DNA of 9,088 nucleotides from Candidatus Woesearchaeota archaeon (GCA_964497435.1 CAZCCD010000004.1:14501-23588); one strand, 5' to 3'; counted from the first letter of the stretch, positions 134 to 8,776 are shown. The notes: generated by a model not told the origin, from the sequence alone. Numbers and translations are program-made.

Positions 134-3100
134 CTATTTTTTCTTCTCTTCCACTTTTAGTTGGAGCTTAAACCCAACCATCTTCTTGATTTCTTCAACA
201 CACTTTGGGTTTAAAAGAGTCATTAAACCAGCTGGCTCTTCGTTGCTTAATATGCTTTTAAGAATTCTCCTCATTATTTTCCCTGAACGAGTTTTAGGGA
301 GATCATTAACAAAATAAACTTTTTGAGGCCTTGATGTAGGGCCTAGAGTCTTGTCAACATGGTGTTTTATTTCTTGTTCTAACTTTTCTGAAGGTTTTCC
401 GCTTTTTAACACAACAAAGGCAATAGGAGTCTGGCCCTTTATTGGATCTGGAATAGGGACAACTGCAGATTCATTTACAAATTTACTACTATCTATTGAA
501 TTTTCAAGTTCTGCTGTTGATAATCTATGGCCTGCGACTTTCATTACATCATCTGTTCTTCCAGTTATTCTAAAATAACTTTCTTTCATTACTGCTCCAT
601 CACTAGTATCATATTTTCCTTTAAATGTTTTCCAGTATGTTTCTACATATTTTTCATGGTTGTTATAAACTCCATGCAGCATTCCTGGAGCGAAGGGCGA
701 GAGTTGAACTAAAAATCCTTGGGAAGATTTTTTTCCATTTTTATCTAGGATTGTATGTCTTGTTCCTGGGAAGGATTTTCCAGCAACTGTTGGAATAAAA
801 GGACCAATGCCAGGAAGAGTGTTTATAATAGTGCCTCCTGTTTCTGTCTGCCACCACGTGTCTAGTATAGGACATTTACTCTTTCCAATATTTTTGAAAT
901 ACCACATCCACGCTTTTTCATCTATTGGCTCTCCAACTGTCCCGAGAATTCTTAATGAATTTAATTTGTGTTTCTTTAGATATTTTTCACCCCATTTCAT
1001 GAACATTCTTATTGCTGTAGGTGCTGTATAAAAAACAGAAACTTTGTATTTATCTATGATTTGCCACCATCTTGAAGGATTTGGAAAATCAGGAGTTCCT
1101 TCGTAAATTAGAGTTGTTGCTCCATTTAACAATGGGCCGTAAAAAGCGTATGTATGCCCTGTAATCCAGCCAATGTCAGCTGTGCACCACATAATATCAG
1201 AGTCTTTAATATCGAAAACCCATTTTGCTGTTAGATAAGCTTGGACAGCATATCCTCCTGTATCATGGACAATTCCTTTTGGTTTGCCAGTTGTATTGTG
1301 TGTAATAATTCCATTGACAATATAATTATGATTTTTTTCGGCTGTTAAATCATAAACAAAATCATATTCGTTATCTATTTTTTCTATTTCTAAAATTTTT
1401 TCTAGAATAGCATTTTTAAACTCTAATAATTTTTGAATTTTTTTTCTAATTATCTTTAATTTTTCTAATTTTTCTTTATTAGTTTCTGTTTCAATTTTGT
1501 TATCTAAAAATTCTTTAATTATTTTTAACCCTTTTTTATCAGTTTGATTGCTATGAACAAATTTGGTGATTTTGCTAAAATCCCCTTTCCAATCTACTTT
1601 AATAGTTTTTGTAATTTCTTTTAGAAGAGAAAATAAAGGAAATCTATCTTTTGAAAATATTTTTTTTGAAGATAATTTCTCCACTAAACTATTAAGCTTC
1701 ATTTTTTTAGCTTGATCCGAAAATCCAATTTCTTTATGAAATCTATTTAAGGATTCTCTCTCGGAAATTATGACATCTAAATAAGGAGTTTCTTTTATAA
1801 CTCTATTTCTGATTTTTCTTTCTTTGTTTATTCCATGATATACTTTAGCGATTATACCAAATCTTCTCATTAATAATTGAGAAATTCTAATCAATTCTTC
1901 ACTTGTACTTGATAATTTAATAAAAGAGTGTCCAATTGTTCCTTCTGCATCGTATAATCCTCTTAAAAACCCAGCAATACATTCTTTCTCACTTTTTTGA
2001 ATAATTTTTGGAATGTCTCTCTTATTGCTTATAGTTGCAATTTCAGGAAAATTTTCTATTATATAATTTCTAAATAAAGAACTATTAACTAGTAATCTTA
2101 ATCTTTCACTCTTTTTTCTTATATTACTTTTTACATTTAATTCTTTCAAAATTAAATTTTTGTAAGATTCTAAATTAGATATGTCCTTATCTGTAAAGAT
2201 AATGCTTCTTTTATCTAAGTGTCCATCTCCAACAAAATATCCTAAGATTTGAGCAAATTCAGAAGTTAGAAAATTCGGAATTTCTGGAATATTTTCTGGT
2301 TTATAAGTTGTTTTATTTCCATATTCTTTTTTTTCTTTTAGTTTTGGAAGTGTTTGTTTTTCTCCTTTTATATTTATGCTAGATATAACAAATATTTTAT
2401 TATTATTTAATAAATTTTTAACTTCTTTTTCAATTAGATTTCCATATTCATCTAGACTAAATAATCTGTGATTTGGAGTAAAAATAGCCTCGAATGAGGG
2501 TGTTCTTATCTTATATAAAACAGAGTTATTGGGATATTTATGAAGGTTTGTGATGTTATCTTCCATTTGTACTAAAGGATTAGAATGCATATTGACTATT
2601 TTCGGCTTAATATTTTTCTCAACTATTTCTTTTATTTTTACAATTTCTCCGTTTACTAATTGTATTAAAGAATTTGGATGACAACAGCCACTAGTATAAA
2701 GAATAAACATTGGATCTTCAGAGTTTATTATTTCTGGCTTGCAATATGTAGAGCCTTTTTCTAAAAAAGAATTAAAGTTAGTAAATTTACCAGAATAATT
2801 TCTTTTTTTATTCAATCTTGAGACAACAATAACATGTTTTATAGTTGTGCCTTTTATTGCTTTTTTTGCCTTGCTTAATAAATTTTCTTTTTCCCCTCTT
2901 CTATAATATCCATCACAAGTTATAAGGACATTTGCCTTGCAATCTTCAATTCTAGCTTTTAACGCGTCTGTTGCGAATGCAGAGAAAACAACAGAATGAA
3001 TAGCTCCAAGTCTTGTGCATGCTAGCATTGCAACTAAAGCTTCTGGAACTAAAGGAAGATAAATAGAGACAGCTTCGCCTTTTTTTACTCCAAGATCTTT

Positions 3101-3478
3101 AAGAGAGTTTGCGAATTTATTTACTTTCTCATATAATTCTCCGTAAGTTAGAATTACTGGTTTTTCATTTATAGGTTCAGGAATCCAGATTAAAGCTGGT
3201 TTGTTTGGATTTTTTAAGTGCCTATCTAAAGCATTGACGCAGAAATTTAATTTTCCTCCTTTAAACCACTCGAAGTAGGGGAGTTTTTCAACGTAAGTGT
3301 TTTTTTCTTCCCACAATTTTTCCCAGACAATGCACTCTTTTGCCTGTTCATTCCAAAACTTTACAGGAGCTTTTTCAGCTTGAGAATAAACACTAGGATT
3401 GTTTATCCAAGCTATTTTTTTCATTTCATTGCTTGGCCAGAATTTATTGCCCTTTTTTACGACGTAAGACATTTTCAC
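134..3478 (-). CDS. acs: Acetyl-CoA synthetase (AMP-forming, ANL superfamily) interrupted by an in-frame intein; predicted spliced product about 650 aa
   Basis: The 1114-aa ORF has Acs-typical N-terminal (WFKGGKLNFCVNALDRHL), core (DTWWQTETGG) and C-terminal (LPKTRSGKIMRRILK, carrying the catalytic/acetylatable Lys) motifs. The A3 motif YTSG...TTGKPKG is split by 464 aa. The track start at 3478 is GTG and lies inside a GAGGTGA Shine-Dalgarno-like sequence. The ATG two codons downstream (start at 3472, MSYVV...) is therefore the more likely initiation codon. Confidence 0.9.
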   Translation of the reverse strand: MKMSYVVKKGNKFWPSNEMKKIAWINNPSVYSQAEKAPVKFWNEQAKECIVWEKLWEEKNTYVEKLPYFEWFKGGKLNFCVNALDRHLKNPNKPALIWIPEPINEKPVILTYGELYEKVNKFANSLKDLGVKKGEAVSIYLPLVPEALVAMLACTRLGAIHSVVFSAFATDALKARIEDCKANVLITCDGYYRRGEKENLLSKAKKAIKGTTIKHVIVVSRLNKKRNYSGKFTNFNSFLEKGSTYCKPEIINSEDPMFILYTSGCCHPNSLIQLVNGEIVKIKEIVEKNIKPKIVNMHSNPLVQMEDNITNLHKYPNNSVLYKIRTPSFEAIFTPNHRLFSLDEYGNLIEKEVKNLLNNNKIFVISSINIKGEKQTLPKLKEKKEYGNKTTYKPENIPEIPNFLTSEFAQILGYFVGDGHLDKRSIIFTDKDISNLESYKNLILKELNVKSNIRKKSERLRLLVNSSLFRNYIIENFPEIATISNKRDIPKIIQKSEKECIAGFLRGLYDAEGTIGHSFIKLSSTSEELIRISQLLMRRFGIIAKVYHGINKERKIRNRVIKETPYLDVIISERESLNRFHKEIGFSDQAKKMKLNSLVEKLSSKKIFSKDRFPLFSLLKEITKTIKVDWKGDFSKITKFVHSNQTDKKGLKIIKEFLDNKIETETNKEKLEKLKIIRKKIQKLLEFKNAILEKILEIEKIDNEYDFVYDLTAEKNHNYIVNGIITHNTTGKPKGIVHDTGGYAVQAYLTAKWVFDIKDSDIMWCTADIGWITGHTYAFYGPLLNGATTLIYEGTPDFPNPSRWWQIIDKYKVSVFYTAPTAIRMFMKWGEKYLKKHKLNSLRILGTVGEPIDEKAWMWYFKNIGKSKCPILDTWWQTETGGTIINTLPGIGPFIPTVAGKSFPGTRHTILDKNGKKSSQGFLVQLSPFAPGMLHGVYNNHEKYVETYWKTFKGKYDTSDGAVMKESYFRITGRTDDVMKVAGHRLSTAELENSIDSSKFVNESAVVPIPDPIKGQTPIAFVVLKSGKPSEKLEQEIKHHVDKTLGPTSRPQKVYFVNDLPKTRSGKIMRRILKSILSNEEPAGLMTLLNPKCVEEIKKMVGFKLQLKVEEKKK
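1295..2686 (-). mobile_element. Intein (464 aa) with a LAGLIDADG homing-endonuclease domain, inserted in the Acs phosphate-binding loop
   Basis: The junctions read YTSG|CCHPNS... and ...NGIITHN|TTGKPKG, giving Cys1, a penultimate His, a terminal Asn and Thr+1. Block B TxxH is present (TPNH). The two LAGLIDADG motifs are LGYFVGDGHL and IAGFLRGLYDAEGTI. Block F/G is DFVYDLTAEKNHNYIVNGIITHN. Removing it restores the canonical YTSGTTGKPKG. Hand counts of sample 60-nt lines give about 15% GC inside the intein (lines 1441, 2101) versus about 42% in the exteins (lines 1141, 3001). Confidence 0.88.
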
Positions 3479-3832: not shown

Positions 3833-4425
3833 CTTACTTTTAAGAATTTCTTTTTCTCTTTAGTTCCTTTATACCAAAGCATTTTTGTATAGCCTGTATT
3901 GTCAATTTGAGAAGGTCTTATCTTAAGCTCTTTTATGACTGCCCTTATTTTGTTTCTTGCTGTTTTAATGTCACTTGGCTGGCATAAGTATTCTATTTCT
4001 AAGAAGTATCCGAGATGCTTTACGTTATTTATTTCTATTGAAACTTTCTTGTCTTTCTTCCATTGATATGTTTCATTGTGTTTTATTTTCTTTACCCATT
4101 CTTTAAAACCTAAATCCATGAATAAAGCCAAAATATCTTCGACTTCGTCTTTTTCATGAAGTGTGAATTCAAATTCCTGTTTGACGACAATGTCTTTTGT
4201 CCACAAATTCACGAGCCATTTTTTGAAATTAACCTCAAATTTGTCTTTCATAGCCCTTATTCTGAATGCTTTTTTAGGATAATCTTGATTGTTTTGTATT
4301 GCAAAATAATCGTCAGCCTTTGTTCCTTCTTTTTCAAACACAGCTATCTCTTTTATCCTTTTTTTAAATTCAGGAACTTCAGAATCATTTAGTTTTATTT
4401 TTGTTTCAACTTCAAGCCATACCAT
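3829..4425 (-). CDS. CYTH-domain protein (CyaB-type class IV adenylyl cyclase / triphosphate tunnel metalloenzyme family), about 198 aa
   Basis: Starting at the internal ATG (4423-4425) the protein begins MVWLEVETKIKL, which carries the diagnostic ExExK motif. An RxR strand follows (AFRIRAM), and GYFLEIEY lies near the C-terminus. GGAGGTG sits 7 nt upstream of this ATG. The 42 codons upstream in the track ORF (to 4551) read through a GC-rich structured region and are probably not coding. Confidence 0.75.
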   Translation of the reverse strand: MVWLEVETKIKLNDSEVPEFKKRIKEIAVFEKEGTKADDYFAIQNNQDYPKKAFRIRAMKDKFEVNFKKWLVNLWTKDIVVKQEFEFTLHEKDEVEDILALFMDLGFKEWVKKIKHNETYQWKKDKKVSIEINNVKHLGYFLEIEYLCQPSDIKTARNKIRAVIKELKIRPSQIDNTGYTKMLWYKGTKEKKKFLKVR

Positions 4426-4440
4426 TAAAAGACACCTCCG

Positions 4441-4626
4441 GTTTCTTTTATAAACTTCCCTTACGGGACAGTGGGTTTTCACAATCCAGCAACCTGAAGA
4501 CAACCTGCGGTTTTCTCTAACTCGCAACCTCTCTCGTTGTGAGTTCAGCAATTTGTCTCGCGAAATTGCTCACACACACTTTCCCTCCAATAGTTGCCTC
4601 CGATGGATTCGGATTTAAAAACCTCT
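4441..4626 (-). ncRNA. Candidate structured ncRNA or structured leader of unknown class (GC-rich island)
   Basis: This stretch is visibly GC-enriched against an AT-rich background. A TTTATAAAA TATA-like box lies upstream on the minus strand at about 4657-4665. Local helices read on the minus strand are listed here. First, CCGA-AUCCA-UCGG (4600-4612). Second, an 8-bp stem AGCAAUUU/AAAUUGCU (4547-4570) extended by UGUG/CACA. Third, UGCG/CGCA (4506-4526). Fourth, a GNRA hairpin UCCC-GUAA-GGGA (4457-4468). The ends could also pair, GGUUU (about 4620) with AAACC (about 4441). The strand was chosen from G-U pairing potential and the promoter position. Confidence 0.35.
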
Positions 4627-4720
4627 TTTTGTTGTAAGAAATAGGAAAATCGGTTTTATAAATCTTATTTTTATTTTTTGGATAAACTTTTAAATAAAAC
4701 ATTCTTAGTTTTTAAATAAA

Positions 4721-5875
4721 ATGGGGTTTGATTTTATTGTTCTTGGAGCTACGGGCATACAAGGGAGAATTGTTACTCGAGATCTATTGGAAAATGGTTA
4801 TAGTGTTTTAATGTGTGGGAGAGATAAATCAAGAATTCTACATTTATTAAAAAAATTTAAAAAAACTTATTTTAAGTATATTGAAGCAAGAAAAATATCT
4901 ACAATTGTTAATGCTATTAAAAATTCTAAATCAAATATAGTTATTAATTGTATAGAAGGAAATTGGAATCTTAATGTATTAAACGCATGTCTAAAAACGG
5001 GAGTTCACTCTGTTGATTTAGGATCTGATATTCCAATGACAAAAAAACAATTGGCTAAAGATAAAGTGCTTAAAAAGAAAAACTTAATTCATATAACAGG
5101 AATTGGTTCTGTTCCAGGAATAGGTAATATAATGTTAAGACACATTGTAGATAAGTTTGATAAAATAGATGGAATAGATGTGGGGTTTGCATGGGACTCA
5201 AACATAAAAGAATTTGTCGTTCCTTTTTCAATACAAAGTATAATAGAAGAATTTACTGCTCCTGCCCCATTTATTCATCATAAAAAAATAGTTAAAATAA
5301 AACCACTTAACTCAATTGTTAAGTGTTATCATAGGGCTATTGGAAAAGAGAAACAGTTCAATGTTGGTCATCATCCAGAAACCTATACTTTTTATAGCTA
5401 TTGTAAAAATAAAGGAATAGAAAATGTTAGATTTTTTGCAGGCTTTCCAGACCACTCTTTTGAAAAAATAAATAGCATGATACAATTAGGTTTTGGAAGT
5501 AAAAAAGAAATTAATTTTAAAGGAAAAAAAACAAAACCCATAGAATTTCTTACAGAAGTAATGAAAAGAATAAAGATGCCAAAAGGATATACTGAAACAG
5601 AAAACCTTTGGGTTGAAATATCGGGAAGAAAGAACAATAAAAAAAAGAAAATTCTTATGGAGTGCATTGCGCCAACATTAAAAGGTTGGGAAGATGCTGG
5701 ATGCAACATTGATACAGGAATGCCAGCAAGTATTCTAGCCCAAATGATAAAAAAAGGAGTTATTAATCAATCAGGAAGTTATTCACCAGAATACATAGTG
5801 TCGCCAGAACCATTTTTTAAGGAACTAAGAAAAAGAGAAATGGTTGTTCTGGAGAATGGAAAGAGGATAAATTGA
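4721..5875 (+). CDS. Saccharopine dehydrogenase-family NAD(P)-dependent oxidoreductase (paralog 1, 384 aa)
   Basis: There is an N-terminal Rossmann motif (VLGATGIQGRIV) and a central ITGIGSVPGIGNIM motif resembling the G-x-x-PG-x-x-N signature of the SDH / carboxynorspermidine dehydrogenase family. A TATA-like TTTTAAATA lies about 24 nt upstream, suggesting a leaderless mRNA. The specific substrate cannot be assigned. Confidence 0.7.
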   Translation: MGFDFIVLGATGIQGRIVTRDLLENGYSVLMCGRDKSRILHLLKKFKKTYFKYIEARKISTIVNAIKNSKSNIVINCIEGNWNLNVLNACLKTGVHSVDLGSDIPMTKKQLAKDKVLKKKNLIHITGIGSVPGIGNIMLRHIVDKFDKIDGIDVGFAWDSNIKEFVVPFSIQSIIEEFTAPAPFIHHKKIVKIKPLNSIVKCYHRAIGKEKQFNVGHHPETYTFYSYCKNKGIENVRFFAGFPDHSFEKINSMIQLGFGSKKEINFKGKKTKPIEFLTEVMKRIKMPKGYTETENLWVEISGRKNNKKKKILMECIAPTLKGWEDAGCNIDTGMPASILAQMIKKGVINQSGSYSPEYIVSPEPFFKELRKREMVVLENGKRIN

Positions 5876-7049: not shown

Positions 7050-7138
7050 AAAAAGTAAAACTGTTATTTATGAGTTAGTCTAAATACATATCCTTACAAA
7101 GTATTTAAATATTTGTTTTTAAAGAAAATGTAATGGTA

Positions 7139-7263
7139 TTACGCCCCGTCCTACTTGCGACCTTGCTCGTTATTGATTCAGATTGTCTTCGCAAAATCGC
7201 TCGGATTCGAAATTAAACTTTCTGGAGTTACGCGAACCTCTATGCCATTTCCAATGGCATTCA
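7139..7263 (-). other. Conserved structured 3' module A, directly downstream of tRNA-Glu and ending in a repeat of the tRNA 3' acceptor strand
   Basis: Read on the minus strand, the module starts with an 8-bp hairpin ATGCCATT-GGA-AATGGCAT. Next comes the invariant 13-mer GGTTCGCGTAACT (7226-7238), then TTTCGAATCCGA. A stem UUGCGA (7189-7194) / UCGCAA (7155-7160) follows. The module ends in GGACGGGGCGTAA (7139-7151), which matches the tRNA 3' end GGACAGGGCGTGA (7261-7273) at 11 of 13 positions. A GTAATACCATTAC hairpin and a T-run follow. The module is homologous to 8120-8240. Confidence 0.45.
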
Positions 7264-7519
7264 CGCCCTGTCCGAGATTCGAACTCGGGTCACGGCCGTT
7301 CTCTAAGCGCGGTGAAAACCGCGATTTGAAGTTCTTTTGGAACTTCTTTACCTCTCAAAAATTCTCTGAGGCTTAAATAAAAAGCCTGTCCTAAGAGGAC
7401 GCGAGTCATTGTCTCGACGACTATACTCATGCAATTTAATTAAGTTGAGAGGGCCGCATTCCTAGCCTCCCATATAGATTTTACTCCAAAATAGGATTTG
7501 GCCTCTGAACTAACAGGGC
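7264..7519 (-). tRNA. tRNA-Glu (anticodon CUC) with two introns: 36 nt in the D-loop (21/22) and 147 nt at the canonical 37/38 site
   Basis: The exons are 7519-7498, 7461-7446 and 7298-7264. They assemble to a 73-nt cloverleaf: GCCCTGT TA GTTC AGAGGCCAA GAAT G CGGCC CTCTCAC GGCCG TGAC CCGAG TTCGAAT CTCGG ACAGGGC G. Acceptor, anticodon and T stems all pair perfectly. Both introns sit in BHB motifs. Intron 1 has central helix GGCC/GGCU with bulges AA|A and AG|G. Intron 2 has central helix CUCU/AGAG with bulges CA|A and AA|C. No CCA is encoded. Confidence 0.78.
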
Positions 7520-7544
7520 GTCTAGGAAGAATAAAAGAAATTCA

Positions 7545-7561: not shown

Positions 7562-7813
7562 TTACTTGACTAAAAACACAGAATCATTAGGCCTGACTTT
7601 TTCAGGGACTTTTATTCCAATATGGTCTCCTTTTTTAGCAGATTTTACGGGTTTTCTTTCAATCTGTATTTCATCAATATCTGTTTCAAAGTCAGTTGTA
7701 TGGCCTTTTATATGGACTTTATCCCCTACTTTTAAGGTTCCTGTTAGCTTTATGGCTGCAACACCAACATGACTGAAAAAGCTAGACACTTTACCTATTT
7801 CCTTTTCTGCCAT
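7562..7813 (-). CDS. Small beta-barrel protein resembling translation-factor domain II (EF-Tu domain-2-like), 83 aa
   Basis: MAEKEIGKVSSFFSHVGVAAIKLTGTLKVGDKVHIKGHTTDFETDIDEIQIERKPVKSAKKGDHIGIKV resembles the G-x-V-x-G-x-L-K-V-GD...I-x-x-x-x-x-x-V-x-x-A-x-x-GD-x-(I/V)-G pattern of EF-Tu/IF2 domain II. The track start at 7831 is TTG. The ATG at 7811-7813 lies about 21 nt downstream of a TTTATATA box and is the preferred start. Confidence 0.6.
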   Translation of the reverse strand: MAEKEIGKVSSFFSHVGVAAIKLTGTLKVGDKVHIKGHTTDFETDIDEIQIERKPVKSAKKGDHIGIKVPEKVRPNDSVFLVK

Positions 7814-7902
7814 AACATAAATAAAAAGCAATAGTATATAAACTTTTCATATATCTTTTTTAATTACACAATCCTTAAATATAGTAGTTATTTGCATTAA
7901 AA

Positions 7903-8064
7903 ATGGCAACCGGCGATAAATCGTGTTTAAAATGTAAAGGAGAAGGTAGAATTGTGGAAAAAGACGGCACTATTCACATTTGTTATGATTGTCTTAGCAA
8001 AGGATTTATGGATCAGCATAATAAAGAGATAAAAGATGCTAGTGAGTTAGGGTTTAAGATTTGA
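7903..8064 (+). CDS. Zinc-ribbon mini-protein, 53 aa (too short for the ORF track)
   Basis: The manual translation is MATGDKSCLKCKGEGRIVEKDGTIHICYDCLSKGFMDQHNKEIKDASELGFKI*. It has two Cys pairs (CxxC...CxxC), the first in a DnaJ-like CxxCxGxG context. A TTAAATATA box lies about 20-28 nt upstream of the ATG. The gene is divergent from the beta-barrel gene. Confidence 0.5.
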   Translation: MATGDKSCLKCKGEGRIVEKDGTIHICYDCLSKGFMDQHNKEIKDASELGFKI

Positions 8065-8119
8065 TTCTTTGACAGAATTTCTTTTAACTTATATACTTTC
8101 TAATTCTTCTTAAAAGATG

Positions 8120-8240
8120 ATAGCCCTGCCAACTCATGACCTCACTTGTAATTCATAAAGTTAGTCTCATGAAATCATTCGGAATTCGAAAATGAAATAT
8201 TCCTAAGTTACGCGAACCCATTATGGTTTTCAACCATAAA
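8120..8240 (-). other. Conserved structured 3' module B, directly downstream of tRNA-Gln and ending in a repeat of the tRNA 3' acceptor strand
   Basis: Read on the minus strand, the module starts with the hairpin ATGGTT-GAAA-AACCAT. Next comes the invariant GGTTCGCGTAACT (8206-8218), then TTTCGAATTCCGA. A stem UCAUGA (8167-8172) / UCAUGA (8134-8139) follows. The module ends in TGGCAGGGCTAT (8120-8131), which is identical at 12 of 12 positions to the tRNA 3' end at 8240-8251. A T4 run follows. Confidence 0.45.
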
Positions 8241-8366
8241 TAGCCCTGCCAGGATTCGAACCTGGGTTACAGGATTTCTCTGCAGTTTTTCTCCAGAGTC
8301 CTGTATCTATGGTCCTTTTCTTAATTTTTACATCACAAAAAAGTTTGACCGCTAGACGACAGGGCT
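8241..8366 (-). tRNA. tRNA-Gln (anticodon CUG) with two introns: 36 nt in the D-loop (21/22) and 17 nt at 37/38
   Basis: The exons are 8366-8345, 8308-8293 and 8275-8241. They assemble to 73 nt: AGCCCTG TC GTCT AGCGGTCAA AGAT A CAGGA CTCTGGA TCCTG TAAC CCAGG TTCGAAT CCTGG CAGGGCT A. The A1:U72 pair and A73 are typical of archaeal tRNA-Gln. Intron 1 has central helix GGUC/GACC, inner helix CUUUU/AAAAG, and bulges AA|A and AU|A. Intron 2 has central helix CUCU/AGAG with bulges GG|A and AA|A. Confidence 0.82.
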
Positions 8367-8388
8367 ATAGAACTTTCTATGAAGTTTA

Positions 8389-8396
8389 ATTTAAAA
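8389..8396 (-). promoter_or_regulatory. TATA box for tRNA-Gln
   Basis: TTTTAAAT spans about -30 to -23 relative to tRNA position 1 (8366). Confidence 0.4.
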
Positions 8397-8449
8397 GCTT
8401 GTTGTTTGGTTATGGAAATATTTTTATACATCTATTATCTTAGTTTTTC

Positions 8450-8776
8450 ATGGCATCTGGATTTGCTATAGCAGTTATTATAGGAATTATAATACTCATA
8501 TGGCTTTTGTTTGAAGTAAAGAGGGCGAGGCATAAAATGTTTGCTATTTTTTTAATAGCCTTGATATTATTTTCTTATTTCAGTTTTACATATGTTATAA
8601 GAGATAAAGATGTGAATTTAAAGAGTTTTTCAGGAATGGCCGAGGCAGGAAAACTTTATTTTTCATGGCTTGGCTCTCTTTTCGGAAATTTTAAGGAAAT
8701 AACAGCCAATGCAATAAAAATGGATTGGAAAGGAAAAGATGTCGATAAAAAAAATTCAACGCGTTATGTAAGTTAA
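8450..8776 (+). CDS. Small membrane protein (108 aa, 2 predicted TM) with a C-terminal KEITxNxIxxDWK motif
   Basis: The hydrophobic segments are FAIAVIIGIIILIWLLF and MFAIFLIALILFSYFSFTYV. The C-terminal region SLFGNFKEITANAIKMDWKGK is shared with the next ORF. A TATA-like TTTTTATAC lies about 20 nt upstream. Confidence 0.6.
   Translation: MASGFAIAVIIGIIILIWLLFEVKRARHKMFAIFLIALILFSYFSFTYVIRDKDVNLKSFSGMAEAGKLYFSWLGSLFGNFKEITANAIKMDWKGKDVDKKNSTRYVS

Follow-up and report, generated by a model that had tools for sequence, protein, structure and literature searches.

The stretch of DNA analysed here (9,088 nt, referred to below as the window) has a G+C content of about 30% and an archaeal character, and the closest relatives of its proteins are found in Nanoarchaeota and Woesearchaeota MAGs. 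Two heavily interrupted tRNA genes, for tRNA-Gln and tRNA-Glu, lie on its minus strand. The former is the single tRNA match of Rfam in the window (minus strand 8366-8241, 42.3 bits, E 1.9e-6; anticodon CUG), while tRNA-Glu was missed, giving a yield of one of the two genes for Rfam and 0 tRNAs for ARAGORN. The tRNA-Glu gene was parsed by hand and checked against its orthologues at related loci (L136, L138, L139, L146 and L158). Partial tRNA copies and heavily interrupted tRNAs escape standard tRNA finders. The genes and their introns are as follows.

8241..8366, minus strand: tRNA-Gln(CUG) gene, 126 nt, composed of a 73-nt tRNA and two introns (Rfam 42.3 bits)
8309-8344, minus strand: D-loop intron of tRNA-Gln, 36 nt (limits from the intron-less orthologues in L148 and L151)
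8276-8292, minus strand: anticodon-loop intron of tRNA-Gln at 37/38, 17 nt (limits from the intron-less L148 and L151)
7264..7519, minus strand: tRNA-Glu(CUC) gene, 256 nt including the 73-nt tRNA (manual parse), about 1 kb from tRNA-Gln
7462-7497, minus strand: D-loop intron of tRNA-Glu, 36 nt
7299-7445, minus strand: intron of tRNA-Glu at 37/38, 147 nt

The D-loop introns of both genes occupy the same position (after GGYCAA) and share a relaxed bulge-helix-bulge with a GGUC/GACC helix and an AAA bulge. The 147-nt intron of tRNA-Glu lacks a block that is common to the orthologous introns of relatives, GGTGATCT..GTCT.GATGA.AGA..AGGTCTATG.ATCTCAATGC.

Behind each tRNA gene lies a short module that ends in a second copy of the tRNA 3' end. 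The perfect 12-nt direct repeat reported at tRNA-Gln in the first-pass annotation is present as described: ATAGCCCTGCCA on the plus strand (TGGCAGGGCTAT in the sense of the tRNA) occurs at 8120-8131 and 8240-8251, 120 nt apart, and comprises T-stem positions 63-65, acceptor positions 66-72, the discriminator A73 and one further nucleotide. The 12-mer has a G+C content of 58% in the 30% G+C window and is anchored at the tRNA end; AT-rich exact 12-mers within 300 nt are commonplace by chance (3 found, where simulation gave 1.6 on average). At tRNA-Glu the corresponding copies are 122 nt apart, and a tRNA end followed by its copy was seen again in seven further loci of relatives. Each repeat does match its own local tRNA, as had been claimed, and at each locus one complete tRNA and one partial tRNA copy stand in direct orientation. 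The two tRNAs were also rightly said to carry the same module (nhmmer E 1e-42 to 6e-45; 66% identity in the interior), with identical blocks in the Gln and Glu modules, for example GGTTCGCGTAAC. The parts of both modules are listed below, together with a further copy of one domain elsewhere in the window.

8240..8251, minus strand: proximal Gln repeat TGGCAGGGCTAT, the working tRNA 3' end; orthologous tRNA-Gln genes stop here and have no second copy
8120..8131, minus strand: distal Gln repeat TGGCAGGGCTAT, followed by a run of four T
8132..8239, minus strand: Gln module, 108 nt, no ORF, homologous to the Glu module at 7152-7262 (111 nt)
8221-8239, minus strand: Gln hairpin 1, 8 bp
8202-8219, minus strand: Gln conserved motif GGGTTCGCGTAACTTAGG
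8181-8190, minus strand: Gln T-loop copy TTCGAATTCC
8169-8178 and 8136-8145, minus strand: 5' and 3' strands of Gln helix H2, with a 23-nt loop between them and GAGT after the 3' strand
7263-7273 and 7141-7151, minus strand: proximal (GGACAGGGCGT) and distal (GGACGGGGCGT) Glu repeats, matching at 10/11 positions
7141..7273, minus strand: Glu module with both repeats, identical in L118 and L119
7242-7260, minus strand: Glu hairpin 1
7222-7239, minus strand: Glu conserved motif
7203-7211, minus strand: Glu T-loop copy TTCGAATCC
7191-7200 with 7157-7166, minus strand: Glu helix H2
4524..4569, minus strand: third copy of the H2 hairpin domain (GCAATTTCGC ... GAGAGGTTGC), found by nhmmer (E 0.002) and a descriptor scan, with no adjoining tRNA

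Read in the sense of the tRNA, the module begins with a perfect 8-bp hairpin right after the tRNA, followed by the motif GGGUUCGCGUAAC-UUAGG (in its family form GGGUUYGC...GUAAC...UUAGG), a T-loop copy (UUCGAAUUCC or UUCGAAUCC) and GA, the 10-bp helix H2 around 23-24 nt, RAGU(A/U), and finally the repeat. The distal tRNA copy is thus longer than 12 nt, running from the T-loop to position +1, and is split by H2 at about T-stem position 62/63. At tRNA-Gln, TTCGAATTCC and TGGCAGGGCTAT stand on the two sides of H2 and correspond to the tRNA's own TTCGAATCCTGGCAGGGCTAT, and at tRNA-Glu the two parts are TTCGAATCC and GGACGGGGCGT; the T-loop variant (A or G) in each module tracks the local tRNA. Because the distal copy consists of T-loop and 3' end both in the window and in the related locus L142 described below, the duplicated unit spans the T-loop to just past the discriminator, as it does in the other fillers found at these tRNAs.

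Helix H2 is conserved as a fold. Across four copies, 95% of cells are paired, both sides have changed in 5 of the 10 pairs, two neighbouring U-G pairs have been retained, and the pairing collapses in every slid control. Since the U-G pairs would be A-C on the other strand, the fold exists on the tRNA-sense strand only, as RNA or single-stranded DNA. For single modules, minimum-energy folding gave no significant improvement over shuffles (z -0.9 to -1.7), and the comparatively predicted H2 is the only convincing fold of the module. With Rfam 15 covariance models there was no match besides tRNA in the whole window at E<=1, and nothing meaningful at E<=10 in 7100-7540 or 4380-4700. The third H2 copy lies in an intergenic segment (4425-4625, minus strand) upstream of a CYTH-domain gene, with a fold z-score of -3.25 against shuffles. 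This segment may encode a small RNA of unknown kind, act as a 5' UTR element or represent one more remnant of an element. It also contains two copies of AAACCG(C/G)AGGT(T)GTCTT, a motif that occurs as well within the tRNA-Glu filler of the related loci L146 and L147.

The same locus was retrieved from related Nanoarchaeota by means of a small, highly conserved and syntenic EF-Tu-domain-2 gene (7562-7813, minus strand) that lies between the two tRNAs, the usual order among relatives being tRNA-Gln, EF-Tu-domain-2 gene, tRNA-Glu. Uninterrupted orthologous sites with no second copy are found at tRNA-Gln in L139, L148, L151 and L158, and at tRNA-Glu in L138 and L148. The module is absent from the syntenic saccharopine dehydrogenase loci L129-L135. 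Other relatives contain unrelated fillers (74-555 nt) between a tRNA end and a 13-40-nt copy of that end, with repeats that start between T-loop and T-stem and end 1-23 nt beyond the tRNA. The tRNA-Glu fillers are as follows.

L136: 23-nt repeat, copies 106 nt apart
L139 and L141: repeat of about 24 nt, copies 108 nt apart
L158 and L159: 13-nt repeat, copies 130 nt apart, with four perfect hairpins inside
L146 and L147: diverged copy, 137 nt apart
L151 and L153: 40-nt repeat, copies 555 nt apart, with a 132-aa ORF between them that has no match in Pfam

In L146, an intact tRNA-Gln of another allele is followed by two further tRNA-Gln 3' ends, giving three in tandem. Two earlier proposals do not survive these comparisons. 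Duplication of an already decorated tRNA gene is rejected because empty orthologues exist, namely the module-less tRNA-Gln genes of L139, L148, L151 and L158 and tRNA-Glu genes of L138 and L148. The supposed link between the module and the D-loop introns also dissolves: tRNA-Gln in L139 and tRNA-Glu in L138 have the intron and no downstream repeat, tRNA-Glu in L146 has the intron together with an unrelated filler instead of the window's module, and tRNA-Glu in L136, L139 and L158 has a filler and no D-loop intron. Among the relatives the 36-nt D-loop intron is patchy and independent of the 3' module.

Integrase genes occur at the same junctions in relatives. In L138, a tyrosine integrase gene (7672-8535; Pfam Phage_integrase, 8e-21) lies directly after two tandem tRNA-Gln cores (CATCCTGGCRGGGCTAT) that are 91 nt apart, and ahead of the first core stands GTTCCACGTAACTGGGACATTTCC, similar to the motif GGTTCGCGTAACTTAGGAATATTTC of the window. 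In L142 and L143, the window's module family recurs behind a third tRNA species, a tRNA-Met(CAU) with an A1-U72 pair and a GGG/CCC anticodon stem, where a perfect 34-nt repeat has its copies 184 nt apart. In L142, the segments TCAAATCCC and ACCCCTGCTAT on the two sides of H2, when joined, are exactly the tRNA's T-loop-to-3' end TTCAAATCCCACCCCTGCTAT. In L145, from the same species as L142, an integrase-like ORF lies directly after tRNA-Met in the module's place, its Pfam match being weak (E 8e-4, below the curated cut-off). The 9-kb window contains no integrase gene and the 108-nt module no ORF, and no full-length element with the module's exact arms was found.

Of the possibilities raised at first pass, that the insertion carries or duplicates its own target, and that a common targeting mechanism serves both tRNAs, fit these comparative data, in particular the empty sites, the unrelated fillers, the integrases at the same junctions and the third tRNA species with the module. 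These data show the module to be inserted DNA rather than part of the tRNA, and our preferred reading, held with moderate confidence, is that an attachment site was duplicated around a miniature integrative element without cargo, or around the remnant of one. The two 12-mers would be attL-like and attR-like copies of a recombination target around a short insert at the tRNA-Gln 3' end. The incoming DNA would have brought its own version of the tRNA 3' portion, reaching from the T-loop to slightly beyond the discriminator, and recombination in the common stretch would have left an intact tRNA gene, 108 nt of element and a second, partial tRNA copy. Elements with tyrosine integrases integrate into tRNA genes by such recombination in a common stretch. 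As the putative element has neither cargo nor integrase, the enzyme would have to act in trans or to have been lost. The module lacks a promoter, and no T-run is reached until after the distal copy; it is therefore probably transcribed as a 3' trailer of the tRNA and removed by RNase Z. The repeat, the homology of the modules, their presence or absence among relatives, the integrases at the same junctions in relatives and the covariation in H2 are direct observations, and the recombination mechanism, mobilisation in trans and co-transcription with the tRNA are inferred. The family has a fixed layout of hairpin, motif, local T-loop copy, H2 splitting the distal copy, RAGU and tRNA end, with members at tRNA-Gln and tRNA-Glu of this genome and at tRNA-Met of another lineage. 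Since the same reduced layout is present at three tRNAs, once with the perfect 34-nt repeat, and the three modules can be aligned from end to end, the small unit itself probably spread, as opposed to three larger elements decaying independently. In archaeal integrase systems the repeat corresponds to the tRNA 3' end with various 5' limits (PMC8371274), with which the filler repeats agree, partial tRNA copies left by integration are well documented in archaea (PMC9897764), and related integrases change between tRNA targets (PMC8371274). The complete and partial tRNA copies, the variable 5' limit within the T-arm, the reach of the repeats from a few to 23 nt beyond the gene, the empty sites, the stacked copies and the integrases all fit this known tRNA-integration footprint.

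Several points are nonetheless awkward for a miniature element. A double-stranded circle of 120 bp is too small for a comfortable recombination substrate. A Glu-type element crossing into tRNA-Gln should give one hybrid copy, yet both copies are fully Gln-type, which would mean that the element's tRNA copy was exchanged or homogenised. The conserved U-G pairs and compensatory changes in H2 are not predicted by a plain integrase model and point to selection on a single-stranded fold, of RNA or single-stranded DNA. Lastly, collection scans for further copies returned only chance matches. The pattern GGTTCGCGTAAC...TTCGAA gave at least 117 matches in genome contigs, all by chance in unrelated bacteria, and a tightened core pattern gave 0 matches in viral contigs and 9 chance G+C-rich matches in metagenomes. 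Scans of viral contigs for the motif with the core, the H2 end with the core, or tandem tRNA-Gln cores gave nothing, or chance matches in coding DNA, and found neither relatives of the L138 integrase nor a free form of the element. One such chance match was a G+C-rich bacterial prophage with repeated TGGCGGGGCTA motifs. This prophage end (L161 91-221, IMG/VR), which is unrelated to the window, contains several TGGCGGGGCTA(T) repeats beside an integrase gene, that is, repeated short motifs at the integrase-proximal end of an element.

A stronger version of the miniature-element reading, advanced only tentatively and in our view rather unlikely as a whole, is that cargo-free elements of about 110-185 bp are actively spreading among tRNA-Glu, tRNA-Gln and tRNA-Met of Nanoarchaeota through integrases acting in trans, each element carrying an interrupted mimic of its target's T-loop and acceptor end, and the H2 fold serving as the recombination substrate or as a targeting or acceptor-competing RNA.

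The integrases in relatives also suggest another history, in which larger integrase-bearing elements at each tRNA lost their interior, the two arms remain, and the small unit was never mobile. Full-size elements with integrases are present at these sites in L138 and L145, the motif of the window is similar to the right end of the L138 element, and the three stacked tRNA-Gln ends in L146 are typical of serial integrations. However, the three loci at three different tRNAs share one layout and align across the supposed deletion junction, so that the same deletion would be needed three times, or else a deletion before the spread; the perfect 34-nt repeat in L142 moreover suggests a recent event. 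Such a scar is unlikely, though worth serious consideration. The conservation of H2 can alternatively be taken to mean that the module is a functional RNA, transcribed with the tRNA, whose 3' end pairs with the tRNA 5' strand either as an alternative acceptor stem or as a processing or regulatory decoy, with selection keeping the copy host-matched. A functional RNA would account for the 95% paired H2 cells with 5/10 pairs changed on both sides and conserved U-G pairs, and for the placement of the four T after the distal copy, with no T-run between tRNA and module. Leader positions -1 and -2 also pair with 73 and 74. Of four single differences seen among the distal copies, three (in window Glu, L139 and L138 core B) replace A by G and so preserve the pairing as U-G. 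In the fold of lowest predicted energy the 5' strand is paired with the distal copy (-62.3 kcal/mol, versus -57.7), making the alternative acceptor pairing energetically possible in the model. Against a functional RNA stand the patchy distribution, with intact orthologous tRNAs that have no module, and the unrelated sequences at the same place in other lineages, one of them with an ORF. In L142, runs of T6 and T7 in the H2 loop should stop the archaeal RNA polymerase before the distal copy. With 4-7 nt between it and the acceptor copy, H2 is a poor T-arm mimic, Rfam gives no match, and the other hairpins are perfect Watson-Crick palindromes, uninformative on strand. We consider a functional RNA rather improbable as the explanation, although the trailer may have some role as an RNA.

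Insertion by other means fares worse. A short, non-coding unit flanked by a direct repeat of its target might be a cut-and-paste transposon, a casposon-like element or a retroposed RNA with a target-site duplication in the tRNA end, and an RNA intermediate would agree with how structured and RNA-like it is. But terminal inverted repeats are absent, with at most 8-9 of 25 positions matching between the module ends at the three loci, and the unit has no poly-A or other tail. The repeat length varies (11, 12 and 34 nt in the family, 13-40 nt in the other fillers), where transposase or Cas1 duplications are fixed, and the T-loop segment beyond H2 in the distal copy would not arise from a simple staggered cut, all of which makes this origin very unlikely. 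The lineage is rich in tRNA introns, including the 36-nt D-loop introns, and splicing anywhere in the repeat would restore a normal tRNA; the module with one repeat might thus be an unusual intron, or part of a split or permuted tRNA, removed by way of a bulge-helix-bulge, with the distal copy as the real 3' end. This can be given hardly any credence: the proximal copy already completes the tRNA, the orthologues end there, and no bulge-helix-bulge (two 3-nt bulges, 4-bp helix) removes one repeat period at the Gln or Glu locus. Nor does any bulge-helix-bulge excise H2, as judged by a scan and a manual check, the scan being of a stringency that also missed true relaxed introns. The first-pass annotation had itself named an assembly artefact, such as a duplicated or collapsed read pile-up, as what would undo the finding. 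Against this, the Glu module with both its repeats recurs base for base in the independent Logan assemblies L118 and L119, and comparable arrangements were seen in seven or more further contigs that stem from different projects; the independent match covers the Glu copy, so that a trace of doubt attaches to the Gln copy, and an artefact is extremely unlikely.

Further candidates were considered and rejected. A simple tandem duplication fails because the sequence beyond the distal copy does not repeat the module, except for 23 nt in L142. Neither a consistent motif across copies nor an Rfam match was found for C/D-box sRNA, K-turn, 5S rRNA, RNase P RNA or ribozymes, nor for IS200/IS605 ends, TnpB guide RNA or IS110 bridge RNA, and none of these RNA classes and elements explains a tRNA-end copy of 11-40 nt.

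Integrating viruses and plasmids classically land in tRNA genes, where they usually leave partial tRNA copies as a footprint. Such site-specific integration is well known; the present locus stands out by its small size (108 nt without a gene) and by a folded layout that is conserved, the footprint enclosing no more than about 0.1 kb of folded and conserved sequence without genes, which recurs at three tRNA species. Among known systems, the cis-mobilisable elements (CIMEs) of streptococci are derivatives of integrative elements that are flanked by attachment sites and lack recombination genes. CIMEs and the module share attachment-site bounds, the absence of an integrase, a position beside or in tandem with full elements (cf. 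L138) and an enzyme presumed to come from elsewhere. In the module, the attachment-site flanks are present and recombination genes absent, and one motif common with the end of the L138 element hints at a possible derivation from a full element. CIMEs differ in being kilobases long, bacterial and experimentally mobilised, whereas the module is about 0.1 kb and its mobility is deduced. MITEs resemble it as short, non-coding, structured sequences with several diverged copies and an enzyme in trans, but the module has no terminal inverted repeats and no fixed-length duplication, and its target is a tRNA end that is copied into the element. Integron attC sites are likewise associated with recombination, about 60-140 nt long, and maintained as a fold by compensatory changes rather than as a sequence. 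The module, by contrast, has no integron integrase (none is in view beside it) or attI context, its target is a tRNA gene, and its core consensus is unconvincing: GCGTAAC and GTTGGCA resemble both attC cores (RYYYAAC/GTTRRRY) in the Gln copy only, the Glu copy having GTAGGAC.

The module is also close to the integrative elements of archaea and bacteria that enter the 3' part of tRNA genes by tyrosine recombinases (SSV-, pNOB8-, pT26-2- and SNJ2-type; Williams 2002; PMC8371274; PMC9897764), which also leave one complete and one partial tRNA in direct orientation. The variable 5' limit, the intact tRNA and the use of different tRNAs are common to both, and integrases lie at the same junctions in the module's relatives. 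These elements, however, are about 5-25 kb long and encode an integrase, unlike the module with its 108 nt, no gene and a hairpin-interrupted distal copy. As outlined by Sugahara et al. 2012 (PMC3293823; see also PMC8371274), the attP of a mobile element may act as a vector of tRNA introns. The module resembles such a vector in that an element-borne tRNA fragment holds an extra insert, and a crossover on the insert's other side would deliver the insert into the tRNA; relative to that outline, H2 differs in having no bulge-helix-bulge and in staying outside the working tRNA.

The comparisons document tRNA-Glu, tRNA-Gln and tRNA-Met of Nanoarchaeota as integration hot spots, which bears on the old proposal that disruption of a tRNA gene protects against integration. 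Should the small unit prove mobile in its own right, no smaller integrative element would be known, and it would offer a way to study how attachment-site specificity changes from one tRNA to another. If the stronger version described above is true, the unit would be the archaeal, tRNA-directed equivalent of sites that are defined by their structure, as integron attC is.

Some further observations concern the same tRNAs. The split tRNA genes of Nanoarchaeum equitans are those for iMet, His, Lys, Gln and Glu (x2) (PMC4390854), and the tRNAs with 3'-end duplications described here (Glu, Gln and Met-CAU, the last at L142 5536-5657) are among these split identities; this is one-locus sampling, and the overlap may be coincidence. 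In L151 (2835-2920), the 5' end of tRNA-Glu (GCCCCGATAGTTCA...) is repeated about 56 nt upstream of the gene, a 5'-side counterpart to the 3' duplications. A LAGLIDADG endonuclease ORF lies immediately upstream of tRNA-Gln in L139 (8900-9840), L146 (4790-5710) and L147 (129-587), and in L146 an inverted tRNA-Gln 3' fragment (about 4745-4770) is found beyond the far side of this ORF. LAGLIDADG-type motifs are also present in the window itself, where the acetyl-CoA synthetase ORF (134-3478, minus strand) encodes 1114 aa, compared with 638-657 aa in L136, L138 and L148, and contains an insert of about 460 aa with these motifs, which looks like an intein with a homing endonuclease.
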